A stretch of 64,000 nucleotides of DNA from Candidatus Tenebribacter burtonii (GTDB lineage Bacteria > Cloacimonadota > Cloacimonadia > Cloacimonadales > TCS61), in the NCBI GenBank assembly GCA_030765625.1, contig JAVCCF010000037.1:1716-65715 (forward strand), written 5' to 3'. The translations under genes were made by a program, and so were the position numbers. Below the pieces are notes generated by a model. That model worked only from the letters and a program-made list of their open reading frames with translations. It ran no database searches and was not told where the DNA came from. Shown piece after piece: positions 1,316 to 61,699 of this stretch. Each line of letters opens with the position of its first letter. Within the stretch, counting starts at the first letter, position 1.

Positions 1316-1352
1316 AAAAATAACCTTCGATCAATGGTCGAAGGTTATTTTT
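1316..1352. terminator. bidirectional intrinsic terminator between convergent genes
   Basis: Perfect 13-bp stem AAATAACCTTCGA / TCGAAGGTTATTT with 7-nt loop. A-run on one side and T-run on the other. Confidence 0.75.
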
Positions 1353-3442: not shown

Positions 3443-4067
3443 TTTATTTCCTCTTTTTTCTATATATCATTTCCCCATTTGAAGTTATACAAATTGAAAA
3501 AAGTACAATTAAAGATAATTAATCTATCTTATTAATTAACGTGACTATAAATTTTATGAAGGGTTATTATACAAGAAAAATATTTTTATGATTGAATTAT
3601 ATTTCTTTTCTTTCATTGATGATGAACAAGAAGCAAAATAAGAAAAAGTAATTAATGTGGTTTAGCAACTACTCCGATCATAAAATTATTATCTAATCTC
3701 TCTAAATAAACAAAATTGTAAATATATTGGGTATTATTTTCTAAAGTAAGAAGATTGATATAATTTAACCCATCATATTGCTTGATATTTGTTATGTATT
3801 CCTTAATAAACAGATATTTTCTGGAATTTTTTATAGAGAACATGTTCTTTCCGATAAAGTTTGGGTTACCTGAATATATTAACGCATTGCTATTTGTATT
3901 AAGGTAATTATTGGTTCGTATTTATGAAATTTTGATAGGGGATTTGTGGTTTAATAAATCATGTCTTTATCATTTTTCATTTATATAACAATTAAAATCT
4001 TGACATAATAATTACATAAACAAACAAATTGATTAGTTTATTAACTAAAAAATATTGGAGGAAAATT

Positions 4068-5075
4068 ATGAAAAAGATTTTTGGAATTTTGATTTTCACA
4101 TTTGTAGTATCTGTAGTATTTGCTACAACAATTTATGACATTCAGTATACTGATGTCCCTGGACCAGATGGAACATATCCTTCACTCTTTGAAGATCAAG
4201 AAGTTACAGTTACTGGTATTGTTACAGGTGTAGAATTTTCTCATTATAAAGACAACTTTTTTATTGAAATGTCAGATGGTGATCCTTGGTGCGGTGTATA
4301 TGTATTTATGGCTGGTGATACAACATTAGTGGTTGGTGATGAAGTTGAGATAACAGGAACAGTAAGGGAGTATAATGGTTTGACTGAAATCTCGGGCTAT
4401 GATGATACATTCATTAGTGTAACTCTGTTAAGTTCTGGAAATACTATTCCTGCACCAATAGTTGTACAAACTGCTGACCTTACTGATGCAGCAACTACTG
4501 AACCTTATGAAGGTGGTCTTGTTGAAGTAAACGATGTAGTTGTAACAGAAGAGCAAATAAATTTTGGTCAATGGTATGTAACTGATATTTCAGCAATTCC
4601 GTGTCAAATTGATGATGGATTCTTCTATTTAAATTCTGTAACCCCTGAAATTATAATTGTTTTAGGTATGGAGTGGGCAATTATTAGAGGATGTCTTGAT
4701 TACAGTTATGATGAATATGGAATCAATCCGAGAACTCCTGATGATTTAATAGATGAAGTTTCTTCCGATGAAAACACAGTTAATATTAATTCAGAATTCA
4801 TCGGTTGTTATCCAAACCCATTCAACCCACAAACAACTGCTTATCTAAATTTGAAAAATGATAGCAAGGTTACTTTAAATGTTTACAACATTAAAGGTGA
4901 AATGGTGAAAACTCTTGTTGATGAGAATCTTATAAGTGGTGAACATCATATTATTTGGGATGGTACTGATAACAATAACAGCAAGGTTTCAAGTGGTATT
5001 TATTTCTTTGAGTCTGATATTAATAATGACGGTGGTGATTATACAAGCGTTAAAAAGGTGATCTTACTTAAATAA
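4068..5075 (+). CDS. secreted protein with T9SS-type C-terminal sorting domain; N-terminal part unassigned (IYDIQ-type module, weak recall of nuclease-associated OB-like domains)
   Basis: ATG 4068 lies 6 nt after GGAGG (4057-4061). Signal peptide MKKIFGILIFTFVVSVVFA. C-terminus YPNPFNPQTT...VYNIKGEMVKTL...WDGTDNNNSKVSSGIYFF...KKVILLK. Confidence 0.6.
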   Translation: MKKIFGILIFTFVVSVVFATTIYDIQYTDVPGPDGTYPSLFEDQEVTVTGIVTGVEFSHYKDNFFIEMSDGDPWCGVYVFMAGDTTLVVGDEVEITGTVREYNGLTEISGYDDTFISVTLLSSGNTIPAPIVVQTADLTDAATTEPYEGGLVEVNDVVVTEEQINFGQWYVTDISAIPCQIDDGFFYLNSVTPEIIIVLGMEWAIIRGCLDYSYDEYGINPRTPDDLIDEVSSDENTVNINSEFIGCYPNPFNPQTTAYLNLKNDSKVTLNVYNIKGEMVKTLVDENLISGEHHIIWDGTDNNNSKVSSGIYFFESDINNDGGDYTSVKKVILLK

Positions 5076-5433: not shown

Positions 5434-5452
5434 TTCACTTAATATACTAAAA

Positions 5453-5485
5453 GGAGCTGAGAAATTTCTCAGCTCCTTTTTTTTT
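5453..5485 (+). terminator. intrinsic terminator
   Basis: Stem GGAGCTGAG / CTCAGCTCC, loop AAATTT, then a run of 9 T. Confidence 0.8.
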
Positions 5486-5608: not shown

Positions 5609-5947
5609 ATTTTAGGATTCAGTGTAGATGAACCAACAGACACAAACAATAACCTGCTTAACATCCCCAATGAATATTGCTTGCAGAACAACTACCCGAA
5701 TCCTTTAAATCCTTCTACAACAATTCGTTTTGGTTTAGCAGAAAGTGTTGATGTAAATTTGCAAATTTATAACGTAAATGGTCAGCTTATTAAAAGCTTG
5801 GAATCCGGTGTCTGTGAAGCCGGCTTCCATGAAGCTGTCTGGAATGGAGATGATAATAACGGCAAAAATGTTTCCAGCGGAATTTATTTCTATAAATTAT
5901 AAACGTCTGACTTCACATCAATGAAGAAAATGATTTTGCTCAAGTAA
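5609..5947 (+). pseudogene. remnant of a T9SS cargo gene: only the C-terminal sorting domain survives, interrupted by an in-frame TAA
   Basis: The frame opens at 5609 right after a stop, with no N-terminal domain or signal peptide. It encodes ...NNYPNPLNPSTTIRFGL...IYNVNGQLIKSL...WNGDDNNGKNVSSGIYFYKL, then TAA (5900-5902), then in-frame TSDFTSMKKMILLK-stop. That tail completes the consensus seen in the intact paralogs (YFYKLSTKDKTIMKKMLILK). Confidence 0.7.
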
Positions 5948-5968
5948 AAAATAAGAAAAGAAAAAATA

Positions 5969-5997
5969 GGGGAACCAGTAAGTTCCCCTTTTCTTTT
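5969..5997. terminator. bidirectional intrinsic terminator
   Basis: Stem GGGGAAC / GTTCCCC with 6-nt loop. T-rich tract downstream on both strands. Lies between the pseudogene and the convergent receptor gene. Confidence 0.65.
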
Positions 5998-10458: not shown

Positions 10459-11190
10459 ATGAAAAAGATTTTTGGATTATTAATGCTGAGTTTGGTGTTA
10501 TTTACTGTTTCATGTGATCTATTTGGACCTAATCAAGCAGGAGATGTTTTTATAGAAATTACACCTTCAACGAGTGGATATGTTTGGGAATCTGATATTG
10601 AGATCATTGTAACTTTAGATAATGAAGAAAAAGTGAATTATGTGAAGATTTTTGTGGATAATGTTGAGATTATCGAAGATCATTTATTACCTTTTAGCAA
10701 AGTTATCAGTACAAACCAGTGGCAATATGGTGAGCATACTATAAAAGCTAAAGCCTATTATGATGATGATTCAAGATCTGATAAACAAATAACAGTTTCA
10801 TATATTTGCTGTCCCATTTTTGAAGAGGATCTTATTAATATTAATGGAATAACAGAAACTAATGTGCAAGGTGAACTTATTGGTAATATTGATGAAAGTG
10901 ATTGGCATTTTGGTGATGGTATTGTTGGCACTACTTTTGGTCCTGCTTTTCCAAATCCATGTCAGCTTAGTTGCTCAATTCAGTTCAACTTAGAAGTAGA
11001 AAGTACAGTTTCTATCATAATTATTAATTCCGAAAACGAAATTATTGAAGTTTTATTAGATAATTCAACTTTAGTTGTTGGTGAGCATTATCTCCAATGG
11101 GCTGCACCTGAAAATGTGAATGATATTTTCAGGGTGATTTTTCATGCAGATGATGATTCTCATTGGCATGGAGATGTGGAAGTTCAGTAG
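10459..11190 (+). CDS. lipoprotein with Ig-like module and a degenerate T9SS-CTD-like C-terminus
   Basis: Lipobox LFTVSC. Ig-like segment VNYVKIFVDNVEII...GEHTIKAKAYYDDD. C-terminal AFPNPCQLSCSIQFNLEVESTVSIIIINSENEIIEVLL...GEHYLQW resembles the CTD but lacks the KKMxLLK tail. Confidence 0.5.
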   Translation: MKKIFGLLMLSLVLFTVSCDLFGPNQAGDVFIEITPSTSGYVWESDIEIIVTLDNEEKVNYVKIFVDNVEIIEDHLLPFSKVISTNQWQYGEHTIKAKAYYDDDSRSDKQITVSYICCPIFEEDLININGITETNVQGELIGNIDESDWHFGDGIVGTTFGPAFPNPCQLSCSIQFNLEVESTVSIIIINSENEIIEVLLDNSTLVVGEHYLQWAAPENVNDIFRVIFHADDDSHWHGDVEVQ

Positions 11191-11565
11191 ATGATCTTCG
11201 GAATTGGTATCGATAACATTGAAGTCGTACGGATTAAGAAACAGATTGATGATTCAATAAAATTCAAAGAAAAGATATTTACAGCTAAAGAAATTAAATA
11301 TTGTGAATCTAAAAAGAATTATGCTGAAAGTTATGCAGTTCGTTTCGCAGCTAAGGAAGCATTTCTAAAAGCTATTGGAACCGGCTGGAGTAACGGTATA
11401 CAATTTAAAGATATTGAGATATTGAATGATAAAAAAGGGAAACCAGTAGTTTGTCTACATGGGAAAGCAAAGCAGATAAAATTAGATAAAGAACTTGGAA
11501 ATATTCAGGTTTCATTATCGCATTTAAAAGAAATAGCTACAGCAATAATAATAGTAGAAAAATAA
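11191..11565 (+). CDS. acpS: holo-[acyl-carrier-protein] synthase
   Basis: MIFGIGIDNIEVVRI...FAAKEAFLKAIGTG; 124 aa. ATG directly abuts the previous stop. Confidence 0.85.
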   Translation: MIFGIGIDNIEVVRIKKQIDDSIKFKEKIFTAKEIKYCESKKNYAESYAVRFAAKEAFLKAIGTGWSNGIQFKDIEILNDKKGKPVVCLHGKAKQIKLDKELGNIQVSLSHLKEIATAIIIVEK

Positions 11566-11582
11566 AATTAGGAGAAAAAATT

Positions 11583-12809
11583 ATGGCACTTGAAAGATTG
11601 AATGCTGCACTGAACAAAAACTTGGAAGAATTACGTACAACAGGAAGAGATAAGGGTGCAGAGCTGATTATTAGTGAAATAAAAGAAGCAAAAGGTGAAT
11701 TTGGTCCTCGCTACAATTTGGTTGGTTACGGAGAACAGGAATTCATCAAGATGAATGCAAATTCCTATCTTGGAATGTCGATGAATCCGGAAGTTATCGA
11801 AGCTGAAGAAGCTGCTGCTCGAAAGTTTGGTGTAGGTCCTGGAGCTGTTCGTTTTATCAGTGGAACCCATACTCCACATATTGAACTTGAGAAAAAGCTT
11901 GCAGAATTTCATGAACGCGAAGCTGGTATGATATTCAGCTCTGCATATGTAACAAGTTTGGGTGTAATATATCCACTCATAACAAAAGAAACAGTTGTAG
12001 TATCTGATGCATTGAACCATAACTGTATTATTCAGGCAATGCGTCTTTCACGTCCTGCAGCCAAAATGATATATAAGCACAATGATATGGTTGATCTGGA
12101 AGCCAAAATGAATGAAGCTGTTGGAATGGGAAAACGTTGTCTGGTTATAACTGATGGAATTTTCAGTATGCGTGGAGATTTTGCACTACTCAATGAACTT
12201 ACAGAGATTTGTGCTAAATTCGATGATAAATTTGAGGAAGGTGTTATAACTATTGCTGATGACTCTCATGGTGTGGGCGCTTTTGGAAAAACAGGTAGAG
12301 GAACTGAGGAATTCACAGGAGCAAAAGTTGATATTTTAATAGGAACTTTAGGAAAGGCTTTTGGTGTTAATGGTGGTTATGTAGTAGCTTCTAAAACTGT
12401 ATTAGATTATCTGCGTGAATCTGCTCCAATGTATATTTATTCTAATCCGATAACATGCTCAGAAGCTGTAGCTACATTAAAAGTTTTAGAAATTGTGAAC
12501 AGCGATTTTGGTATAAAAAGATTAGCACACCTTGCTGCTATGACAAAAAAATTCGAGGATGGATTAACTGCTTTAGGCTTTGAAACAATTGAAGGACCAC
12601 ACCCGGTTGTTCCATTAATGGTACGTGATACAGCAGAAACTACAAAACTGGTTGATTATCTTACAAAAAATGGTGTTTTGGGAACTGGTTTGAATTTTCC
12701 GGTTGTTCCAAAAGGTGATGAAGAGATTAGATTCCAGGTTAATGCAGATCATACTGAAGCTGATATAAATAAAGTACTGGAAATCTTGAAACAATATAAA
12801 AATTTATAA
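11583..12809 (+). CDS. kbl: glycine C-acetyltransferase (2-amino-3-ketobutyrate CoA ligase)
   Basis: Alpha-oxoamine synthase family. DDSHGVG and the PLP-lysine context GTLGKAFG. 408 aa. Linked to tdh. Confidence 0.8.
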   Translation: MALERLNAALNKNLEELRTTGRDKGAELIISEIKEAKGEFGPRYNLVGYGEQEFIKMNANSYLGMSMNPEVIEAEEAAARKFGVGPGAVRFISGTHTPHIELEKKLAEFHEREAGMIFSSAYVTSLGVIYPLITKETVVVSDALNHNCIIQAMRLSRPAAKMIYKHNDMVDLEAKMNEAVGMGKRCLVITDGIFSMRGDFALLNELTEICAKFDDKFEEGVITIADDSHGVGAFGKTGRGTEEFTGAKVDILIGTLGKAFGVNGGYVVASKTVLDYLRESAPMYIYSNPITCSEAVATLKVLEIVNSDFGIKRLAHLAAMTKKFEDGLTALGFETIEGPHPVVPLMVRDTAETTKLVDYLTKNGVLGTGLNFPVVPKGDEEIRFQVNADHTEADINKVLEILKQYKNL

Positions 12810-17721: not shown

Positions 17722-17753
17722 GGAAGCCCCAACTATCGGGGCTTCCTTTCTTT
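17722..17753 (+). terminator. intrinsic terminator
   Basis: Perfect 9-bp stem GGAAGCCCC / GGGGCTTCC, then TTTCTTT. Confidence 0.8.
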
Positions 17754-28199: not shown

Positions 28200-28684
28200 T
28201 TTATTCTTAACTACACAGTTAACATTTTTCTGAATAATAAAAACAATACAAAATTTATTCAATTGTTCCGTAATTTCTTTCTGTAAGCTATCTATCTGTA
28301 AATAAATACGTTAGAACAACTATAAATCATTCAAACGTAAAACATAAATATTTTTTTTAAGTGGCTTCGTCACAATTTCAGGATTTTCGACATATATAAG
28401 TAGTAGGGATAATTACATCCAAAAAAAAGTAATAAAACATGTTTATTAAAAAAATGAAATTTACACACTTAACAAATTTACTCTTTACAGAAAAAAACAA
28501 TTTAGCAGTTTTAGAAAGTGAAGTATATAAATCAAATAACATATTCTACATAGTAAAGAATAAGTTCATTCGGATAACTCCTCTCTGAGCGATCGGAGAG
28601 GACTGGGAAGAATTAAAGTAGAGAAATAAAGAAATTGACAAATAAAATTGAGATGAAAATAAAAATAAACAAATGGAGAAAAAT

Positions 28685-31471
28685 ATGAAAAAATATATTT
28701 TACTCGCAATTACCTTATTAATAATTTGCAGTTTATCAGCTAATACTGTATCCGGTTATGTATACTTAAATGGAGGTTCCGGTGTTATTACCAGTGTACA
28801 AGTTAAATTCAATCCACAAAGTAATGGAACAAATAATGTATATCTAAACCCGGATGAAACTGGATTCTATTCATATGAATTCAGTTCTGATGAATTTGAT
28901 ACTTATGATGTTACATTCAAATTGTATAGTAGTAATGGGGATTATTATCTGGTTCCCATTAATAATGTCCTGATTGATAACACTACTACACCATTAACTT
29001 TGGATGATGTTACGTTACAACCAATTACTAATTCAACCAATGTGGTTGTTTCCAACAATGAAAGTATACCAGCTTTCCGATATATTCAGGATGCAGTAGA
29101 TTATTTGTCTATTCGTAATAGTGGTACAGTTACAGTTCTTCCAGGAACCTATACTGGTAATAGGAATAAGAATATTAATTGGTCACCAACGGGTGCAAAT
29201 TTCAACGAGAGACATATTAAAGTAATAGGAGTAGGTGAATGTATAATTGATTGCGAAGGAAGTGGGTATGCGTTTTGGTTTGAAGCTCCGTGGTGGTCAA
29301 ATTATCAATATACTATTGATGACGTGGCAGAAAATCTCATTATCAAAAAAGCCTATAGGGGGATTGTTATTACAAATGGTTCTCCGTTAATCAGAAACAA
29401 TATAGTTGAGAATTGCTCAATTCCAGGTTTTCATGAACTACATGGTGCAGGTATATATTGTGGGAGTTCTGCAATTATCGTAGGTAATACAATAAGAAAC
29501 AATGTTGCGAATTGGACAGATTGGGAAGATTCTAAGTCACTTGGGGGTGGGATTTATATTGAAAATAGTGATTTTAATAATGCTGCGAAAATTATAAATA
29601 ATATAATATCCGGTAATAGTGCATATAATGGAGGTGGAATTTATTGTACAGGTAGTGGTAGGATTGATCTATCTGGAAATACGATTACAGAAAACACTCT
29701 CGTAGAGGGTTCAGGTAATTTTCCTTACCCTGATGATCATGGGACTGGAATATATTGTCAGTTTGTTGATGATATAACAATTAAGGATAACCTTATATAT
29801 GGTAACATCCCGTACCCAGGTAGTTATGGAATTTCGCTTTTTATCGATTGTACTGATGCATTAATTTATAATAATACTATAATTGATAATATTGCTCATT
29901 ATGGAATTAAAATAAAAGCTTCTTCTTCTGCGATTATCGAGAATAATGTAATTTCAAACAATAGATATGGAATTCATAGATTTAATGGAGGAATACCCTT
30001 AACTGCTACTTATTGCTGTATAAGTAATAATACATCTGGCAACTATATCGGTGTAACTTCAGGAACAGGTTGTTTAGCAGAAAATGTTGATCCAAATCTT
30101 GATCAACAAACTTACCAGCCCCTCTGGATTTCAGATGCAAAATCTCCTTGTATTAATGTAGGTGATCCGGCCTTACCACTCGATCCAGATGGTACACCTT
30201 CTGATATTGGGGCAATACGAGCAATTAATCATACAATTGATACGGTTGAATTATTTGATGCTAACGAAGGTATCAACTGGAAATGTTTCCCTGTTCTGGA
30301 TGATATATATGCAGAAGAAGATATTGCCGCTAATGTACTCTATGACATAATGTCACCGCCTATTCCTGCCGCACTTGAATTAGTCGAAACTCAGGGTGGT
30401 GTTAATGACATTTATTTTGACACTTATTGGCATCATGATGATCAGCAATTTACAAGTGTAAAGGGTTATAAATTAGAAATGAATGAAGCTGCAACGTTAG
30501 AAATTACCGGTTTCTTGGAGTACCCTGAACAAATAATAAACCTGGTAGCAGGTGGAGAGAATTGGACCGGTTATTTCCTGGAAGAGAGCATGAATCCCTT
30601 TGATGCTCTGGCAGAAGTACTTGATAAGATAAATAGGATAACAACAAGAACTTTTACTTATATAAAATTAGCTGATAATAGTTGGCTGGGAATAGGTAAT
30701 ATACCAAGGGTTCCTACTTTAAATTATGGTGATCTGGTAATTGTTAATTGTACAGAAAATGGAAGTTTCTTCTGGGGAGAAGGTGGTGCCGGCACAGTTC
30801 CAATAGAAACACGCTCATCCTCCCAGGATTTTACCTATACGGAAGAAGCAGATTACATTCCTGTATATGTTGAACTCGATCTTGAAGCTCTGGATAATCC
30901 AACAGAAATAGGTATCTTTGTTGAAAATGAATGTAAAGGTGCAGAAGTAATTGAAGACACACTGGTTCAAATCCGTGCTTATGTTTTTAACGATTCTCTA
31001 ATATTGGATCCTGGTTCAGTAGAATTCCAACTTTCTTATGGTTCAAGAGCAGAGAATGTACTTATAGATTCATACACTATTAAAGAAAATCTTGATGATG
31101 CAGGTAGAATGGGAAAACTTGATTTCACACAAACACAAAATAGTTATTATTTGATTTCTCTAAATGAAGACGATAATAATGTACCTGAAGTAGCCAAGAC
31201 ATCTCTAAATCAGAATTATCCCAATCCGTTCAATCCATCCACTACTATTGCATATTCAATTCTAAATGATGGTATGATTGAACTCAAAGTTTACAACATC
31301 AAAGGACAATTAGTGAAAACTCTGGTAATGGGTGAACAACAAACAGGATCATATGAAGTTGTTTGGAACGGCAAAGACAATAACGAAAAGAATATTTCAT
31401 CAGGAGTATACTTCTACAAATTATCAACGAAAGATAAGACAATAATGAAGAAAATGTTGATTTTGAAATAA
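28685..31471 (+). CDS. large secreted right-handed beta-helix repeat protein with T9SS C-terminal sorting domain
   Basis: ATG 28685 follows GGAGA. Signal peptide. Many PbH1-like turns (GGGIYIENS, NGGGIYCTG, GTGIYCQ). Helix cap SPCINVGDP...DIGAI. Extra ~330-aa domain. CTD NYPNPFNPSTT...VYNIKGQLVKTL...SSGVYFYKL...KKMLILK. Confidence 0.75.
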   Translation: MKKYILLAITLLIICSLSANTVSGYVYLNGGSGVITSVQVKFNPQSNGTNNVYLNPDETGFYSYEFSSDEFDTYDVTFKLYSSNGDYYLVPINNVLIDNTTTPLTLDDVTLQPITNSTNVVVSNNESIPAFRYIQDAVDYLSIRNSGTVTVLPGTYTGNRNKNINWSPTGANFNERHIKVIGVGECIIDCEGSGYAFWFEAPWWSNYQYTIDDVAENLIIKKAYRGIVITNGSPLIRNNIVENCSIPGFHELHGAGIYCGSSAIIVGNTIRNNVANWTDWEDSKSLGGGIYIENSDFNNAAKIINNIISGNSAYNGGGIYCTGSGRIDLSGNTITENTLVEGSGNFPYPDDHGTGIYCQFVDDITIKDNLIYGNIPYPGSYGISLFIDCTDALIYNNTIIDNIAHYGIKIKASSSAIIENNVISNNRYGIHRFNGGIPLTATYCCISNNTSGNYIGVTSGTGCLAENVDPNLDQQTYQPLWISDAKSPCINVGDPALPLDPDGTPSDIGAIRAINHTIDTVELFDANEGINWKCFPVLDDIYAEEDIAANVLYDIMSPPIPAALELVETQGGVNDIYFDTYWHHDDQQFTSVKGYKLEMNEAATLEITGFLEYPEQIINLVAGGENWTGYFLEESMNPFDALAEVLDKINRITTRTFTYIKLADNSWLGIGNIPRVPTLNYGDLVIVNCTENGSFFWGEGGAGTVPIETRSSSQDFTYTEEADYIPVYVELDLEALDNPTEIGIFVENECKGAEVIEDTLVQIRAYVFNDSLILDPGSVEFQLSYGSRAENVLIDSYTIKENLDDAGRMGKLDFTQTQNSYYLISLNEDDNNVPEVAKTSLNQNYPNPFNPSTTIAYSILNDGMIELKVYNIKGQLVKTLVMGEQQTGSYEVVWNGKDNNEKNISSGVYFYKLSTKDKTIMKKMLILK

Positions 31472-31482
31472 CTCACCATGCT

Positions 31483-32134
31483 GTTCCTCTCTTTCCCGTA
31501 CTTAAAGAGAGGGAACATAAGATGCCATTGTGTATTTATGTTTGCGAAAGTAATCCTTCCGAAGGTTATGTAACTTTTAAAATAAGTCTTTGCCTTCGGA
31601 AGGTTATTGCTCATTATATTTCACTTGTATGCAAGTTGAACTTGCATACGCAGCCCAAGTTGATAAGTCCAACTTATCAACAAGAAGAAAGAATTCCAGT
31701 CAAGCTGAGGACGGTGTCCGGCAACTGACGGATGACAAAAAAGGAAAAATAAGTTTTCAAAGGCTTATAAAATGTAATCATCCTAAAAGCCCCTCTCTTT
31801 ATGCGTTGGCTTCGCGGACAGCGAAACACCGCTTGTCTTAACAAGGTTACTATGAAGAGAGGGGTTGGGGTGAGTTCGAGGAAATGTAATCCCCCTTTAG
31901 AAGGGGGAAAGTTCGGCTTAACCGAACAGGGGTTTCTTGAAAATAATACAATTAAAGATGTCGTTTTGCTTCAGTTCCTTCGTCGAATGTCGAAGAAGAT
32001 TTTCTCAGGAAGACGAAGCAAAAAAGGAGATTTATTTGAAAACTAAAACTATTTTTTCACTTGTTTTTAGCTTATTAGTTCTCGCCCCAAACTTCGTATC
32101 GGGGCAAGTCCTAATTTCCCCCTGTCAAGGGGGA
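31483..32134. repeat. intergenic array of at least ten distinct GC-rich stem-loops
   Basis: Examples with perfect stems: 31627-31649 GTATGCAAGT-TGA-ACTTGCATAC; 31659-31681 GTTGATAAGT-CCA-ACTTATCAAC; 31790-31799/31855-31864 CCCCTCTCTT/AAGAGAGGGG (long range); 31890-31908 TCCCCCTT-TAG-AAGGGGGA; 31911-31927; 32117-32134 TCCCCCT-GTCA-AGGGGGA. Also the near-identical 15-mers CCTTC[C/G]GAAGGTTAT at 31555 and 31593. Confidence 0.65.
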
Positions 32135-32147
32135 CAGATGGGGTTAA

Positions 32148-34454
32148 ATGAATTATAAATATATTTTTTTGTTCGTGCTAATTTGTGTAAATTCGCTGCT
32201 AAACTCCGTTACCTGGCACATCAAACAAGACGGCACAGGTAACTTCACCACTATACAGGCAGGGATAGATGCATCTGCTGATTTCGATTCCGTACTCGTT
32301 TATCCCGGAACGTATTATGAAAACCTGAATATAGATGCTAAGAATATTACTTTATCCAGCTTGGAGATGATCACCGGTGATCCACAATATATTGCTTCTA
32401 CGATTATAGATGGTCAACGTCAAAATAGTTGTATCATTTTGGAATATATAGATATTGATGTAACGATTCGTGGTTTTACCATCCAAAATGGTTATGGTAC
32501 ATTTTTACATGCATTTGAAGGTGCTGGAATCTATGCTATATACATAGAGAACGGAACAATAATGAATTGTAATTTCCAAAGTAATATTGCAACAAGAGGT
32601 GGAGCAATTTACACATGTAGAGTAGATCTCACTTTTTCCGGTCTTAGGATTACAGAAAATTCTGCGGGATTAGGTGGTGGTGCATTTTGGGATTACGACA
32701 GTACAATCATTTTTGATCCTGAAAATCGGTGTAATATTTATAATAATAATGCCGGCAAGGGCGCAGATTTATGTGCACAATATGAGGTAAATGTCAATGT
32801 TGTTGTCGATACTTTCACTGTATTCAATCCGGATAGATTTTTTGCAGAGTATAGAATGGATGCTTCTTATACATTCGATATACAAAATAACTGGATGGAG
32901 CTAGTGTCACAGGATCTTTATGTAGCAGTGGATGGAGATGATAATAATTCAGGCTTAACTCCTGGTGAGCCATTAAAAAATATATCATGGGCTGTTCGCA
33001 AAATTCAAGCAAATGAACAAGATCCCCATACTATTAACGTCTCAGCTGGTACATACTCACATGAGATAAATCAACAAATATTTCCCATTGGTTGTAAAGA
33101 ATATGTTTCTATAATTGGTGAAGATATGGAAACAACTATTTTAAATAATAACTATATGAACATTACAATTTTGGGGCTTAATTTAGCCGGTTTTACTGAA
33201 ATATCAAACTTTACTATTCAAAATGATTTTGATTTTGAAGCATGGTGTATAATGAATTTTCGAAGTATTGAATATTTAAAAGTTAACAATATAACCACAG
33301 ATGGAAATTCAAATATTAGGAGTATAATAGTAAGTGAGCATGTAGACAATCTTTTTGATAATATTATTGTAACGAATAATACTGCAAAAATCGTGGCAGG
33401 TTTTGCTTTGTTTGATAATACTGGTATTTTAAGGAATTGTATTATTAGTAATAATTCTTTAGTTTATAATCCTATATATCCAGGATCAACAGGTTTACAT
33501 TTAAATGCTTATGATCATTTTATTGTTGAAAATACTATTATTTCAAATTGTATTTCTTATGATAATGCTTCCTGTGTAAGTCGTTTAGCAACAGAATATG
33601 GTCAAAACGATAGTATAACTGTGAATAATTGTCTTATTTCAGGAAATAGTAGTAATGATGAATTTGTTATTGTTGTAGGTGGAGATGGTAATATAGAAAT
33701 TAACAACAGTACTATAGTCGATAATTACAATAATGCTAACACTATAAAAGCATTTGGTAATTTGACATTAAGAAATACAATTATGCATAATAATACAGAT
33801 TATGAAATTTATATGGAAGATAATACACAATATGGTTATATTTATGAACTTAATTTAGATCACTGCAATATCAAGAACGGTACAGATGGTGTTTACAACA
33901 TGAATAATGCCAACATCATTAACTGGCTGGAAGGCAATATAGAAGATGACCCGCAATTTGCAGGAGTTGGAGAATATCCATATCAATTAACTTCAGCTTC
34001 TCCTTGTATAGATGCAGGTACACCGGATACAATCGGCTTATTCTTGCCACCCTGGGATCTATTACATAATCAAAGAGTATGGGACGGTGATGATAACGGA
34101 ATTGCTATCATTGATATGGGTTGCTATGAATTTGGAGCAGATTCTGTTGGAGTATTCAATGATCCAATTCCAGTAACAGATTATCAATTAACTAACTATC
34201 CAAATCCTTTTAATCCGGAAACAAAGATAGTTTTCGATCTACCGGAATCCGGTCAGGTTAAACTGGAGATCTACAACATTAAAGGGCAGAGAGTAAAAAC
34301 ATTGTTAGATTGTTATATGAGTCCCGGCAGAAGCGAAATGGTTTGGAACAGTAAAGATGATAATGGTAAAAGAGTTTCTTCAGGAGTTTATTTCTATAGA
34401 TTAAATGTAAACGATAAAACTGAAAAGACAAAAAAAATGCTGTTGCTTCGCTAA
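32148..34454 (+). CDS. large secreted beta-helix protein (GGAI/GGGAF Pmp-like repeats) with T9SS C-terminal sorting domain
   Basis: Signal peptide MNYKYIFLFVLICVNSLLNS. Repeats RGGAIYTC and GLGGGAFW. Cap SPCIDAGTP...DMGCYEF. CTD NYPNPFNPETK...IYNIKGQRVKTL...SSGVYFYRL...KKMLLLR. Confidence 0.75.
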   Translation: MNYKYIFLFVLICVNSLLNSVTWHIKQDGTGNFTTIQAGIDASADFDSVLVYPGTYYENLNIDAKNITLSSLEMITGDPQYIASTIIDGQRQNSCIILEYIDIDVTIRGFTIQNGYGTFLHAFEGAGIYAIYIENGTIMNCNFQSNIATRGGAIYTCRVDLTFSGLRITENSAGLGGGAFWDYDSTIIFDPENRCNIYNNNAGKGADLCAQYEVNVNVVVDTFTVFNPDRFFAEYRMDASYTFDIQNNWMELVSQDLYVAVDGDDNNSGLTPGEPLKNISWAVRKIQANEQDPHTINVSAGTYSHEINQQIFPIGCKEYVSIIGEDMETTILNNNYMNITILGLNLAGFTEISNFTIQNDFDFEAWCIMNFRSIEYLKVNNITTDGNSNIRSIIVSEHVDNLFDNIIVTNNTAKIVAGFALFDNTGILRNCIISNNSLVYNPIYPGSTGLHLNAYDHFIVENTIISNCISYDNASCVSRLATEYGQNDSITVNNCLISGNSSNDEFVIVVGGDGNIEINNSTIVDNYNNANTIKAFGNLTLRNTIMHNNTDYEIYMEDNTQYGYIYELNLDHCNIKNGTDGVYNMNNANIINWLEGNIEDDPQFAGVGEYPYQLTSASPCIDAGTPDTIGLFLPPWDLLHNQRVWDGDDNGIAIIDMGCYEFGADSVGVFNDPIPVTDYQLTNYPNPFNPETKIVFDLPESGQVKLEIYNIKGQRVKTLLDCYMSPGRSEMVWNSKDDNGKRVSSGVYFYRLNVNDKTEKTKKMLLLR

Positions 34455-34527
34455 CAACTTCGCAAAGCTATGTAGTTCAAGAAAGCTATAAAGTACACCT
34501 GTTGTTAAATTAGCCTTGCGTCTGTAA

Positions 34528-34752
34528 ATCCTTCGATACTTGGCTGAAGCCAAACTCAGGATGACTGATGTAGGGTCAATTCCCCGAATTGATCGATAAG
34601 TAATGTTAGCTTGTTTGAAAATCTACGGGTCAATTCTCCGAATTGACCGGACTAACGGACGATTAGGGATAATCGTCCCTACAGTACACTCTTGTTGATA
34701 AGTTAAACTTATCAACTTAGATTGTGTCCGCTATCCGGCAACTGCCGGATGC
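34528..34752. repeat. second intergenic stem-loop array sharing modules with 31483-32134
   Basis: 34528-34565 is a minus-strand GTCATCCTGAG element (ATCCT/AGGAT stem with inner TTGGC/GCCAA). 23-mers GGGTCAATTC[C/T]CCGAATTGA[T/C]CG at 34573 and 34627 match at 21 of 23. 34657-34678 GGACGATTA-GGGA-TAATCGTCC. 34694-34716 GTTGATAAGT-TAA-ACTTATCAAC has the same stem as 31659. 34724-34752 is homologous to 31713-31736. Confidence 0.65.
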
Positions 34753-34797
34753 GAACGAGAAAAAAAGTGCATGCTATTAATTTTTACTTTATTATTT

Positions 34798-34824
34798 ATC
34801 CTGTCTATCCTGTTGATCCTGTCA
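34798..34824. repeat. 3 x 9-bp tandem repeat
   Basis: ATCCTGTCT ATCCTGTTG ATCCTGTCA. Lies 87 nt upstream of the apbE start. Confidence 0.7.
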
Positions 34825-34910
34825 AAAAGAAAACTTGTATACTTAAAGTATAATTAACTTAAAACCATAAGAATTGACAAATTAACTGCCCGAAATTTTG
34901 TGACAAATAT

Positions 34911-51346: not shown

Positions 51347-51480
51347 AAACAAAGTAACGCCAAGAATTAATCCTGAAAATATTCTGTACTTGTTAAGGAA
51401 AATAATTTCTTCATTTGATTAGATTCTCGTTTTCACGGGAATGGCAAATAGAGAAATTAACCTAGATTATATATAATTCT

Positions 51481-57668: not shown

Positions 57669-57755
57669 GCAGAAGTGGCGGAATTGGTAGACGCGCTAGG
57701 TTCAGGGTCTAGTGAGCAATTGCTTGTGGGGGTTCAAGTCCCCCCTTCTGCACCA
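57669..57755 (+). tRNA. tRNA-Leu (anticodon CAG), type II with long variable arm, CCA encoded
   Basis: Acceptor GCAGAAG/CTTCTGC. Anticodon stem CTAGG/TCTAG with loop TTCAGGG. T-arm GGGGG-TTCAAGT-CCCCC. Discriminator A plus CCA. Confidence 0.9.
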
Positions 57756-58402: not shown

Positions 58403-58541
58403 CGTTAACAAGTTGTATTTTTCTCATTAACAAGTTGAACTTGTTAACGCTACTGCTTTGTAAGTTTTACTTACGAACTTGTTTATTATGTAAGAAGTAT
58501 AACTTCAATATCAATTGTGTTCGCAAGTGCAACTTGCGAAC
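58403..58541. repeat. periodic array of AAGT-nnn-ACTT-apex hairpins
   Basis: 58427-58447 TTAACAAGT-TGA-ACTTGTTAA. 58457-58477 TTTGTAAGT-TTT-ACTTACGAA (one G-T pair). 58494-58506 GAAGT-ATA-ACTTC. 58519-58541 GTTCGCAAGT-GCA-ACTTGCGAAC. Centres are about 30-33 bp apart. An extra 5' arm copy at 58403-58414 can pair 12 bp with 58438-58449. Confidence 0.65.
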
Positions 58542-58563
58542 AAGAGATGTATAAATTTTGAAC

Positions 58564-58608: not shown

Positions 58609-58860
58609 ATGAAGACGTACAATATTGAATTAATTGAGAAAAGATTTGAAGAATTAATTGATCTCACTATTGATCATGACAATATTCTTAGAATTAAAAC
58701 CGGCAAAGGTAATGCAATTATAATCTCAGAAACAAAATGGAAATCAATTAAAGAAACTTTATTTCTTCTTTCAATTTCAGGTATGAGAGAATTGATAAAG
58801 AAAGGTATGAACACTCCTCTGGCTGAATGTAGTGAGGAATTGGAGTGGAAGAAAAGTTAG
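58609..58860 (+). CDS. Phd/YefM-family type II antitoxin-like protein
   Basis: 83 aa. MKTYNIELIEKRFEELIDL...GNAIIISETKWKSIKETLFLLSISGMRELIKKGMNTPLAECSEELEW is typical of Phd/YefM antitoxins. Start at ATG 58609 is preferred over the TTG at 58558. Confidence 0.8.
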   Translation: MKTYNIELIEKRFEELIDLTIDHDNILRIKTGKGNAIIISETKWKSIKETLFLLSISGMRELIKKGMNTPLAECSEELEWKKS

Positions 58861-58885
58861 AATTAAAAAAATAAAGGGATTTAAT

Positions 58886-61699
58886 ATGGAATCAATAATA
58901 ATTAAAATAATTGATTTAATTATAACATTTGCTTCAAAATCAATGAAAAAAGATTTTGAAATTGTAAAGTATCTGAAGAAAATGGGATTATTGAAATTAG
59001 AAGCTAATTTTGATTCAAGACTTATACATTCGTTAATTGAATTTGGTAAAAATAAAACTAATCTCAGATTCATTGAAGTTATGAAAGACAAAGTGTTACA
59101 AGAACTATTTCAAAAAGGAATATATGAAAATAAGCTTGATGAGTTTAAGAAAAAGGCTGAATTTACGCTTCATAAGAAATTAGCTTTTGAGAATATTACA
59201 TTGGATATACCATACGAGCAAATTATAGATGATTTTGTTTCAACTTTCGAAACAATTGATAAACAAACAGAAAGCAAAGCAATACTTGATTTTATAAACA
59301 ATACTAACTTGAAATTATTTGAATTATCTGAAACCAACTATAAAAACTCTTTCGAATACAAAATAGAAAAATACTTGGCTCAATTAATTGATGATTTCTA
59401 TAACAAGTTTGTGAATGATGATCTTTATGTAGACTTAAACGGTGTAACTAAAATTAAAACAAAAGTTCATCTGCATACAAAAGGAATAGTAAAAGAGGAG
59501 ATGAATGATAATTCATATGTTGAACTTAAAGCCGTAGCAGAAATAGATTATGAACCAATTGATAAATACATAAATGAATGGTTGGAAAAAGAAAATAAGA
59601 ATTTCCTGATAATCCTTGGAGAATACGGAACAGGCAAATCAACTTTATGTGAATATATTTCCTGTGATCTGGCAAAAGGTAATTTAAATCAGGGTGAACA
59701 AAAGATACAGGACAAAAAGCACAGAAAACCAATAATATTTAACCTGAGAAATTTTAGAAATCAGGGCCTCGAAGCCTTTTTAATATCTGAGTTAAGTATA
59801 AATGTCAATGAAGTATCATTTATTGAATTTAAAGAGAAATTGAAAAATGATGAATTCATATTGATATTTGATGGCTTCGATGAAATGGCAGCAGAAATAG
59901 ATGTAAGGGGGAAAAAAATTAATTTCGATTATATATTCGATATTTTAAAGTTCTATAAAAATAGTAAAATCATACTTACAAGTAGAATTGAATATTTCCA
60001 ATCATTGCAAGAACAATCGGAAGCATTAAAAGTGAATGAAGAAAATGTAGATACTATTTACATTAAATTATTTGAAGAACCTCAGATCTTAAAATTCCTA
60101 GAAAGAATGAAGGGAGAGCCAAATAAGAACTGGAAAGAGATAGAAGCTATTAACGGATTAAAAGATTTAGCAAAGAGACCGGTTCTCTTAAACTTAATCG
60201 TAAAACATTTAATGAAAATTCTTAAAGAAACAAAACAAGAAGTAAAATCGATTGATGTATTCAGTGCTGCCATCGATGATGAACTTAAAGAGATCAGGAA
60301 AAAATTCCGAAAAGATGATAGAGATTATGGAACAGATGACGCTACAAGGATGAGAATCTTACAGAAGGTTTGTATATCTCTTTTCATCAAAAATCAACTA
60401 AGCATTCCAATTATAGAAATAGCAGATTATGCTAAAAATGATCCTGATTTAAAAAATAAAAACGCAGCACAAATAGAAAACTATCTGACAAATTTCCATA
60501 CTTACACTTTCTTTGCTAGAGATAAAGATGATATTTTTAGAATATCACATAAAGCATTTATAGATTATCTGGCAGCAAAAGAGTTATATGAAGAAATTAC
60601 AAGCAATAAACCAGTGAACTTCGGGAAACAACAAATCAATGTTGCTATAATTCACTTTATCTTCGAAATGAAACCAAGTAAAACCAAATTGAAAAGATTA
60701 TTTAAAACTGCAGCAGAAACAACAGAAAAAACCAAATGGCAAAAAAGCAATGCAGTTAATTTAATTTTGAAAATTGATAATCCTCGATATGCTGGCAATG
60801 TCGATTTCAATTCAAGTGAAGTAAATTTGGAAAATTCTTATTTATATAATATTGATATTTTGATTGAATTGGAAAAATTAACAAATCTAAATTTAGCTAA
60901 GAATCAAATCAGCAACATATCACCACTACAGGAATTGAAGACTTTAGTTAGTTTAGATTTAAATAATAACCAAATCAGCGACCTATCACCGCTACAGGAT
61001 TTGAAGAATTTGACTATTATTGATTTGTCTATAAATAGAATCCGCAACCTAAAACCATTACATGGTTTGATAAACTTAATAAGTTTAGACTTATTCATGA
61101 ATAAAATTACAGACATTAAACCTTTGATTAATTTAAGGAATTTACAAAGTTTAAGTTTAGTAGGCAATGAGATCAATAATATTGAGATTTTGAAAGATTT
61201 TATTTATTTAGAGACTTTATTTTTAGCTGGTAATCAAATTAATGATATCAAGTCTTTGAGAGAATTAAAGACGTTAAAATGCTTAACTTTATCATACAAC
61301 CAAATCATCGATATCAAACCTCTGATAGGTTTAAAAAAACTTACTGATTTGAACTTACGTAATAATCGATTAAATAACATCGAATCTTTGAGAGAATTGA
61401 AGAATTTATTGTTTTTATGTTTAACAACAAATCAGATTAATGATATTGGACATTTGAAAGATCTGAAAAATTTAACAACTTTAGAACTTGCTTACAATCA
61501 AATTTGTGACATTCAACCTTTGAAAAATATGAAAAAGTTACAGCGTTTAATACTATCAATGAATAAAATTAATAATATTGATACTCTGAAAGAATTAAAA
61601 AATTTAACTGAATTATTAATAACTGGAAATCCACTTAAATCCTCTCAAATAGAAGAATTGAGGAAAGCTCTGCCCAAAACAAATATCGAATTTTATTAA
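58886..61699 (+). CDS. NACHT-type STAND NTPase with unassigned N-terminal domain and 12 C-terminal leucine-rich repeats (bacterial NLR-like)
   Basis: ATG 58886 lies 7 nt after AAGGGA; an alternative GTG at 58832 would overlap the antitoxin. Walker A GEYGTGKST (59618-59644). Walker B ILIFDGFDEM (59858-59887). ILTSR, KRPVLLNL, FRISHKAFIDYLAA. Then 12 x 22-aa LRRs. Confidence 0.8.
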   Translation: MESIIIKIIDLIITFASKSMKKDFEIVKYLKKMGLLKLEANFDSRLIHSLIEFGKNKTNLRFIEVMKDKVLQELFQKGIYENKLDEFKKKAEFTLHKKLAFENITLDIPYEQIIDDFVSTFETIDKQTESKAILDFINNTNLKLFELSETNYKNSFEYKIEKYLAQLIDDFYNKFVNDDLYVDLNGVTKIKTKVHLHTKGIVKEEMNDNSYVELKAVAEIDYEPIDKYINEWLEKENKNFLIILGEYGTGKSTLCEYISCDLAKGNLNQGEQKIQDKKHRKPIIFNLRNFRNQGLEAFLISELSINVNEVSFIEFKEKLKNDEFILIFDGFDEMAAEIDVRGKKINFDYIFDILKFYKNSKIILTSRIEYFQSLQEQSEALKVNEENVDTIYIKLFEEPQILKFLERMKGEPNKNWKEIEAINGLKDLAKRPVLLNLIVKHLMKILKETKQEVKSIDVFSAAIDDELKEIRKKFRKDDRDYGTDDATRMRILQKVCISLFIKNQLSIPIIEIADYAKNDPDLKNKNAAQIENYLTNFHTYTFFARDKDDIFRISHKAFIDYLAAKELYEEITSNKPVNFGKQQINVAIIHFIFEMKPSKTKLKRLFKTAAETTEKTKWQKSNAVNLILKIDNPRYAGNVDFNSSEVNLENSYLYNIDILIELEKLTNLNLAKNQISNISPLQELKTLVSLDLNNNQISDLSPLQDLKNLTIIDLSINRIRNLKPLHGLINLISLDLFMNKITDIKPLINLRNLQSLSLVGNEINNIEILKDFIYLETLFLAGNQINDIKSLRELKTLKCLTLSYNQIIDIKPLIGLKKLTDLNLRNNRLNNIESLRELKNLLFLCLTTNQINDIGHLKDLKNLTTLELAYNQICDIQPLKNMKKLQRLILSMNKINNIDTLKELKNLTELLITGNPLKSSQIEELRKALPKTNIEFY
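60869..61660 (+). repeat. 12 tandem 66-bp coding repeats (22-residue LRR units)
   Basis: Units of the form LxxLxxLxLxxNxIxDIxPLxx, e.g. LKTLVSLDLNNNQISDLSPLQD and LKNLTTLELAYNQICDIQPLKN. Confidence 0.9.

Follow-up and report, generated by a model that had tools for sequence, protein, structure and literature searches.

Clade-specific hairpin modules and putative orphan leaders in a spacer between two type IX secretion cargo genes of a Cloacimonadota bacterium

The DNA analysed here is a 64-kb stretch (the window) from an Antarctic-lake Cloacimonadota bacterium, and the element in question is a 676-nt spacer at positions 31472-32147 which parts two plus-strand genes for secreted proteins. Both genes encode type IX secretion system (T9SS) cargo ending in a C-terminal secretion domain (CTD), and the gene downstream of the spacer is hereafter called cargo2 (Table 1). 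A preliminary description of the window had called the two genes paralogs. Their CTDs are indeed 55% identical over 86 aa, but the remainder shows only repeat-level similarity (ca. 25-27%), and the two genes are thus only loosely paralogous. By its RecO the window falls within Candidatus Cloacimonadota, near Ca. Tenebribacter of Ace Lake, Antarctica. An identical spacer was present in seven metagenome contigs of the same strain. The GC enrichment noted in the preliminary description is real yet modest: the GC content of the spacer (0.41) is the highest among the intergenic regions of the window, the others having values of 0.22-0.37 and the flanking genes of about 0.33-0.36.

Hairpin modules of the spacer

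The preliminary description had pictured the spacer as filled with hairpins, and the predicted fold goes far beyond chance (z about -9.5). The minimum free energy (MFE) was -234.7 kcal/mol, with a folding z of about -9.4 to -9.5 on the plus strand and -8.7 on the minus strand, which makes the spacer an extreme outlier among the 15 intergenic regions of the window. The spacer after cargo2 was the second most structured (z -6.3), and the 13 other regions ranged from +2.2 to -3.6. All the individual structures named in the preliminary description were recovered where it had placed them. They comprise perfect hairpins at 31486-31512 (9 bp), 31627-31649 and 31659-31681 (10 bp each), 31890-31908 (8 bp) and 32117-32134 (7 bp), a long-range pairing of 31790-31802 with 31852-31864 (13 nt, 92%) that encloses smaller hairpins, the direct repeat AAATGTAATC at 31770 and 31882, and the boxes CCTTC[C/G]GAAGGTTAT at 31555 and 31593. 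The last of these hairpins had been said to overlap the Shine-Dalgarno (SD) sequence of cargo2. It does end 13 nt before the ATG at 32148, this being the distance of its 3' arm AGGGGGA from the start codon, but a better-placed SD, GGGG at 32140-32143, lies outside the 7-bp stem and is weakly paired in the predicted fold.

Table 1. Coordinates of the spacer, its modules and the neighbouring features in the window.
Feature	Positions	Strand	Description
AT-rich unstructured region upstream of the first cargo gene	28352-28664	+	contains TTGACA; z -0.9
Upstream T9SS cargo gene	28673-31471	+	932 aa; beta-helix and FlgD_ig/Por_Secre_tail CTD (Pfam)
Spacer	31472-32147	+	mosaic of hairpin modules and putative orphan leaders
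H1 (CCTCTCTTT / AAAGAGAGG)	31484-31514	+	first hairpin past the stop codon; no U-tract after it
M5 pair, two self-complementary CCTTCSGAAGGTTAT boxes	31549-31609	+	31555-31569 and 31593-31607; also pair with each other
Twin HB (31627-31649) and HA (31659-31681) with CAACAAGAAGAAAGAA	31620-31697	+	degenerate leader copy lacking ATG
M9 (CCAGTCAAGCTGAGGA) and M4 hairpin (TCCGGCAACTGACGGAT), then A-run	31696-31733	+	
M1 long hairpin	31778-31873	+	outer stem TCATCCT/GGGGTGA; inner stem AGCCCCTCTCTT/AAGAGAGGGG
Insert nested in the M1 loop	31803-31851	+	49 nt; two small hairpins including TTGGCTTCGC..GCGAAACAC
Putative orphan initiation region GAGTTCGAGGAA-ATG-TAA	31872-31889	+	start codon, then stop at once
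M2 C5/G5 hairpin (31890-31908) and M6 (31911-31927) before second G-run AGGGGTTT	31890-31935	+	
M10 long imperfect hairpin (TTTTGCTTC ... GAAGCAAAA)	31960-32030	+	ends in AAGGAG (32024-32029)
40-aa open reading frame (TTG)KTKTIFSLVFSLLVLAPNFVSGQVLISPCQGGQMGLNEL	32036-32158	+	starts 6 nt past AAGGAG; contains M7 and M8; overlaps the cargo2 start
M7 hairpin	32083-32105	+	GCCCC / GGGGC, 12-nt loop; also in L020
M8 TCCCCCT-GTCA-AGGGGGA and SD-like GGGG (32140-32143)	32117-32147	+	working leader of cargo2
Downstream T9SS cargo gene (cargo2)	32148-34454	+	768 aa; pectinesterase-like beta-helix and CTD (Pfam)
Second hairpin-rich spacer	34455-34910	+	M3a twice (34574-34594, 34628-34648), M3b (34657-34678), HA inverted (34694-34716), M4 (34734-34750)

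The spacer was compared with ten further loci carrying cargo2 orthologues (L014, L015, L017, L019, L020, L021, L102, L103, L104 and L105), and about a dozen small hairpin modules were delimited in it. Since the modules occur independently of each other in other genomes, the long-range pairs in the MFE fold of the whole 676 nt were disregarded. Homologues of H1 lie directly past the stop codon in L102 and L019, and the change from TTT/AAA to CCC/GGG in L019 is compensatory. Boxes like those of M5 occur in both orientations in the upstream spacer of L014. The HB-HA twin carries compensatory changes at 5 of 19 pairs, and its covariance model (R1) matched loci of this clade only. In L021, the twin ends in ...CAACAAGAAAGGAAAATT-ATG immediately in front of a cargo gene of 438 aa, and its counterpart in the window is decayed and lacks the ATG. 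The twin sits elsewhere within the orthologous spacer of L020, and HA recurs inverted in the second spacer. M9 and M4 recur in that spacer as well as in L014 and L017. More generally, M3a, M3b, M4, M5 and M9 variously recur in the second spacer, L014, L017, L021 and L105.

Eight loci have M1; its inner stem does not vary among them, and no covariation was seen. M1 makes up the entire 75-nt junction of L021 and stands about 25 nt before the start codon in L017. The insert nested in its loop is near-identical in L105 and missing from the M1 copies of L020, L102, L021, L017 and L014; the hairpin GGCTTCGC..GCGAAACAC stands alone in the L014 spacer. The window, L020, L102 and L103 have M6 between M2 and the second G-run, while L015 and L105 have M2 without M6 and read AAGGGGGAACTAAAGGGGGTTT. 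In L103, an M2-like hairpin, M6 and GGGGGTTTTA directly precede the start codon, and the M2 variant TCTCCC/GGGAGA of L102 and L103 is compensatory. M10 is nearly identical in L020 and L102, and M8 is a paralogue of M2. Some stems carry compensatory changes and others are invariant. Each module family has two to three copies within the 64 kb, and the few copies away from cargo genes lie at 58419-58488, at 51418-51448 and in L002/L004.

Several of these modules serve elsewhere as whole leaders of cargo genes, each with hairpin, SD and ATG, and are orphaned in the window. The working initiation regions of orthologues read GAGTTYGAGGAAWT(A)-ATG (L105, L021) or TAGTYTGAGGAAATT-ATG (L102, L019, L015), and the window matches those leader strings in the middle of the spacer, at 31872-31886. 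The string found there resembles GAGTTCGAGGAATA-ATG of L105, GAGTTTGAGGAATTA-ATG of L021 and TAGTTTGAGGAAATT-ATG of L102 and L019, and its L020 counterpart reads ATG-TAG. The leader that cargo2 uses in the window is instead M8 plus GGGG(T)TAA-ATG; the last hairpin is thus part of a real leader, which is kept in the syntenic L020, while other orthologues have a different one. The leaders of L014 and L020 share an ending ...GGGGGTTAA-ATG. Because the region at 31872-31889, the end of HB-HA and the copy formed by M10, AAGGAG and the 40-aa open reading frame (ORF) all precede the M8 leader, three orphan leaders are stacked upstream of the real one.

The 40-aa ORF has a textbook signal-peptide layout and is probably what is left of a lost cargo gene. 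Among the relatives compared, the near-identical L020 alone retains it, intact apart from the substitutions T->S and M->R. At this place L102 carries another 40-aa ORF, whose sequence resembles the annotated N-terminus of the L015 orthologue. The preliminary description took the small ORFs of the spacer for spurious and allowed that one of them might prove conserved as coding sequence. Only the former was borne out: stop codons break the 68-, 81- and 83-aa frames in the homologous spacers of L017, L019, L020, L102 and L105, the 81-aa ORF is the sole member of its cluster, and the protein collection lacks the spacer's other small ORFs. Automatic gene callers place an 81-aa 'hypothetical protein' at 31801-32046 in several public assemblies; this call is almost certainly an artefact.

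Orthologous junctions and the surrounding locus

Orthologues of cargo2 are numerous in Cloacimonadota, with 60-84% identity. Those of the ten loci occur in at least six genomic contexts, always directly behind another T9SS cargo gene. The 11 junctions compared, including that of the window, measure 75-676 nt, the window's being the longest, and all of them are structured (z -1.5 to -10.6) with differing sets of modules. The coding flanks are conserved: the last ca. 270 nt of the upstream gene, encoding the CTD, are 79-94% identical to the window at the nucleotide level at 8 of the 10 loci and 65-67% at L017 and L104, and the orthologous coding sequences (CDS) are 67-85% identical to that of cargo2. 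The conserved unit seems to begin inside the CTD of the preceding gene. The eight loci sharing the CTD are L014, L015, L019, L020, L021, L102, L103 and L105, and the upstream genes with the shared CTD are otherwise unrelated (432 to 1518 aa, with different domains).

What the spacers have in common between these flanks is limited to discrete blocks. Although the flanks are conserved, modules are present at one orthologous junction and absent from another, and comparison of the loci shows them gained, lost, shifted to other positions, inverted or nested in each other's loops. As to the conserved structures that the preliminary description had asked for in relatives, hairpin blocks do recur in the homologous spacers, but the set of modules differs by locus. 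Sequence identity is often higher between module copies than between the genes beside them: for M1-M2 it amounts to 94% with L105, as against 67% for the CDS, and the ca. 175 nt at 31973-32147 show about seven differences from L020 in the alignment, the single blastn match to L020 running through cargo2 and the second spacer averaging 75%.

An alignment of cargo2 orthologues, used to scan metagenomes, picked up a generic CTD motif and returned 80 unrelated T9SS loci in place of orthologous junctions; these loci served as a control only. Apart from one hairpin of L022 that is shared with L015, the modules were not found in these 80 generic T9SS-CTD loci of other taxa. At most one perfect hairpin of ≥8 bp was present in the 300 nt past the stop codon at 67 of 72 control loci, while most junctions of this clade have three in the same span. 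The modules are almost confined to spacers adjoining cargo genes in Tenebribacter-like Cloacimonadota genomes.

Features around the cargo pair were also examined. The second spacer continues after its hairpins into an AT-rich stretch before apbE; the M3a copies of L014 show the compensatory change GGTCATTT/AAATGACC. This spacer is about 98% identical to that of L020, and the adjoining gene 64% at the protein level. Upstream of the first cargo gene, the AT-rich region includes GGCTTCGTCACAATTT and a CCTCTCTGAG hairpin and matches, at 84-95%, the sequences preceding first cargo genes that are unrelated to it (L014 4651-4702, L019 120-255, L020 2651-3036 and L105 3287-3326). It is a probable common and portable promoter/leader module. 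Such a promoter-like module was found upstream of first cargo genes only and not at the junctions compared, which suggests that the two cargo genes are co-transcribed.

A sharp step in identity to L020 lies inside cargo2 at about 33773 (L020 9644), with about 73% to its left and 98.6% over 8.7 kb to its right; far to the left, recO is 92.5% identical to L020. The step is indicative of a mosaic formed by recombination, one breakpoint lying in the gene. In L002 and L003, recO is directly followed by apbE, without cargo genes. The cargo pair was accordingly considered as a strain-specific insertion between recO and apbE, a view that was dropped on finding that L020 holds a different pair there; what is seen is a hotspot of variation rather than one insertion. 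Elsewhere in the window, an orphan 73-aa ORF (5681-5902) encodes the T9SS sorting domain alone (FlgD_ig/Por_Secre_tail), without a cargo domain, and follows a small cargo gene (4029-5075) and a classical terminator.

Upstream of a Phd/YefM-like antitoxin ORF (58609-58860) lie three HB/HA-type palindromes (58427-58447, 58459-58477 and 58518-58542), and the HB-HA twin among them (58419-58488) is diverged. The antitoxin ORF overlaps the start of a gene for a 955-aa STAND NTPase with NACHT and leucine-rich-repeat domains (region 58609-61699), and the unusual antitoxin-NLR-like pairing is possibly a defence locus. Between convergent housekeeping genes, the hairpin TTAGATTCTCGTTTTCACGGGAATGGCA at 51418-51448 matches cargo-spacer hairpins of L021 and L104. 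Just downstream of the cargo2 orthologue of L015, a truncated tyrosine recombinase (Phage_integrase, 183 aa) and a 249-aa ORF lie convergently at 10573-11873.

Origin of the spacer

The spacer is a clade-specific repeat family, and it is neither a known RNA, nor coding, nor a stack of terminators. As for how it came about, we lean, with middling confidence, towards an accreted junction in which clade-specific modules resembling repetitive extragenic palindromic (REP) sequences or bacterial interspersed mosaic elements (BIME) and orphan leaders were left by shuffling of T9SS cargo cassettes, the junction probably being co-transcribed and its hairpins having stabilising or processing roles. Of the options raised in the preliminary description, scars from repeated cassette insertion come closest to this, and they are the best supported, given the orphan leaders and the presence or absence of modules between orthologous junctions. 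An mRNA-processing platform and translational control of cargo2, two further options of that description, may also apply. Mosaicism is evident from the conserved upstream CTD, the breakpoint at about 33773 and the orphan ORF encoding only a CTD. Under this explanation, recombination, in part via the conserved stretch that encodes the CTD, would exchange or remove cargo genes, and leaders, trailers and small palindromic modules would pile up at the junction. Both cargo genes would be co-transcribed from the AT-rich promoter module upstream of the first, the hairpins lacking U-tracts would act in the mRNA as intercistronic stabilising or processing structures, as REP/BIME do, and M8 would shape the initiation region of cargo2.

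Several points weigh against this explanation. We infer both co-transcription and any role of the hairpins at the RNA level, and the folding z is equal on both strands across the junctions, so that RNA-level and DNA-level roles are not separable. No transposase, RAYT or integrase was found by Pfam among the window ORFs of ≥150 aa. The AAATGTAATC repeats around M1 were considered as a target-site duplication and rejected, as L105 and L020 have them in imperfect form and L021 and L102 lack them. The conservation of M1, M2, M6 and M10 well above that of the neighbouring CDS could instead mean strong purifying selection on a functional RNA. Besides, many of the shared blocks may be co-inherited, in which case counts of orientations and positions are not independent events, and the copy numbers of modules are those of the 64-kb window and the retrieved loci, not genome-wide ones.

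Among the explanations placing the function of the hairpins in RNA, the 3' half of the spacer (31770-32147, with M1, M2, M6, M10, M7 and M8) might be a functional structured 5' leader controlling cargo2, possibly a switch built of triplets of a C5 anti-SD, a G5 decoy and a G-rich SD together with the start-stop mini-ORF and a short leader peptide. The ca. 175 nt at the start codon that are almost identical in L020 despite the diverged coding sequence (75% average match), the 94% identity of M1-M2 in L105, the retention of the start-stop (ATG-TAA against ATG-TAG) and the hairpin-plus-G-run design common to M2 and M8 all agree with it. We nevertheless regard such a leader as rather unlikely, because the orthologues of L015, L019 and L102, at 82-84% protein identity, use a different immediate leader, L021 has M1 alone in its 75-nt junction, and the SD is weakly paired in the predicted fold. 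With respect to a cis-regulatory RNA, covariation is seen in HB-HA and none in M1, and the leader is not conserved among orthologues; a pairing of the second G-run with the C5 arm of M2 was rejected since the L103 variant of the G-run, by eye, does not covary with the arm in that alternative register. That a stand-alone small RNA gene with its own promoter lies inside the spacer, for example M1-M2-M6 (about 31770-31935), is improbable. Across the window, L020, L102 and L105 no other part is as well conserved as this block, which is preceded by a TATAAAATGTAAT motif and folds strongly (z -5.5), but it lacks a terminator at its end, M1 alone is a gene leader in L021 and L017, and the components are found separately in other loci. 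Nor did Rfam offer a match in the spacer: a scan of the whole window at the gathering threshold gave only a tRNA at 57669-57752, and the best hit of a permissive scan of 31300-32300 had E = 0.25, all hits being far below gathering scores. The single structured non-coding RNA suggested in the preliminary description is not supported, given the same absence and the independence of the modules across genomes. Its suggestion of multiple terminators fares no better, and a stack of terminators or insulators between two independently transcribed genes is very unlikely, even though H1 puts a GC-rich stem directly past the stop codon and a terminator scan gave three sites against 0.8 expected. Two of the three are on the minus strand and the plus-strand one is weak, with a 5-bp stem (31978-31995), and H1, HB, HA, M1, M2, M7 and M8 lack the U-tracts of the classical terminators elsewhere in the window (1316-1352, 5449-5480, 5968-5989 and 17722-17746).

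The remaining explanations look to DNA or protein. We see little likelihood that the hairpins are recombination sites, like integron attC or targets of a transposase or RAYT, which mobilise cargo cassettes. Such sites would suit cargo2 orthologues found in at least six contexts and always behind a cargo gene, palindromes equally strong on both strands, insertions nested in loops and the tyrosine-recombinase fragment adjoining the L015 orthologue. However, a search for RYYYAAC...GTTRRRY core pairs 30-140 nt apart in an imperfect palindrome found none on either strand of 31401-32200; moreover, a junction holds many different hairpins instead of a single site for each cassette, the cassettes measure 2-4 kb, no integrase or transposase is in the window, and the homology breakpoints fall within coding sequence (the CTD, and cargo2 at about 33773). 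It is similarly doubtful that the HB-HA palindromes are tandem operators for a dimeric DNA-binding protein and not RNA hairpins. Both share an AAGT-N3-ACTT core, their centres are 31-32 bp or about three helical turns apart in three copies (window 31.6 kb, window 58.4 kb and L021), and the diverged twin stands upstream of the Phd/YefM-like antitoxin gene; yet the outer stem positions vary while staying complementary, which fits a hairpin better than recognition by one protein, and the twin is in mid-spacer, far from any start codon, in the window, L019 and L020. Least probable of all is a real gene among the small spacer ORFs. The best candidate is the 40-aa signal-peptide-like ORF, with AAGGAG 6 nt upstream, a convincing n-h-c layout and conservative changes in L020 where it stays intact, but its conservation is confined to that near-identical relative, L102 has an unrelated 40-aa ORF in its place, the ORF crosses two hairpins and extends in another frame into the next gene, and the three longer frames are broken in homologues. 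A further reading goes beyond accretion and supposes a dedicated T9SS cargo-exchange system, in which the CTD-coding end and portable hairpin/leader modules form the joint for splicing new cargo behind existing genes and the hairpins are functional signals for recombination or processing of polycistronic mRNA, not passive repeats. We hold it to be unlikely; if true, it would be a dedicated mechanism diversifying the repertoire of secreted proteins.

If the accreted-junction explanation is true, a modular family of hairpin repeats has been identified in an uncultured phylum, tied to T9SS cargo junctions that appear to be shuffled between genomic contexts, and it would help explain how large sets of secreted surface enzymes vary. 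No new class of molecular machine is indicated. For the annotation of metagenome-assembled genomes, it matters that spurious ORFs of 70-80 aa are currently called in such spacers, and the compact natural hairpin modules are candidates for tests of mRNA stability and translation.

Relation to known systems

No description of these elements was found in the literature on hairpins or repeats of Tenebribacter or Cloacimonadota. Like integron cassettes, the cargo genes change context together with an adjacent imperfect palindrome, but here there are no attC cores and no integron integrase in the window, each junction has many hairpins, and the cassettes are several kilobases long. The orphan-cassette arrays of polymorphic toxin loci (Rhs, CDI) likewise put a conserved coding segment beside variable modules and gene stumps, to which the orphan CTD-only ORF (5681-5902) and the signal-peptide stump (32036-32158) may be likened. 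The conserved part is, however, the C-terminal secretion domain of the preceding gene and not an N-terminal core, and toxin and immunity genes are absent.

Putative mobile promoters, or 5' regions shared by genes that are not homologous, are closer. The leaders M1 with GAGG, HB-HA with AAGG and M2/M8 with GGGGG, as well as the AT-rich module, precede different cargo genes across genomes, as such promoters do, although several of the leader copies here seem orphaned, with no ORF behind them, and stacked in one spacer. The BOX elements of Streptococcus pneumoniae (boxA-boxB(n)-boxC) resemble the spacer in their separable units, variable copy number and strong predicted structure. In BOX the grammar A-B-C is fixed, whereas modules here follow no set order, orientation or nesting, and organism and sequence differ.

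REP/BIME of Enterobacteria are short GC-rich extragenic palindromes, clustered as mosaics at the ends of genes or between those of a single transcription unit, and they stabilise upstream mRNA rather than terminate transcription. The spacer modules share this layout, all of their copies being intergenic, and like REP/BIME they vary in number between strains and occur in either orientation. Unlike REP/BIME, the spacer mixes at least ten unrelated hairpin families in place of one or two types of palindromic unit, the copies seen here concentrate at T9SS cargo junctions, and no RAYT transposase (among window ORFs of ≥150 aa) and no conserved GTAG-type head were found. Membership of REP/BIME proper is unproven, and the closest kinds are modular intergenic palindromic repeats, as in BIME and BOX, together with mobile promoter/leader modules.

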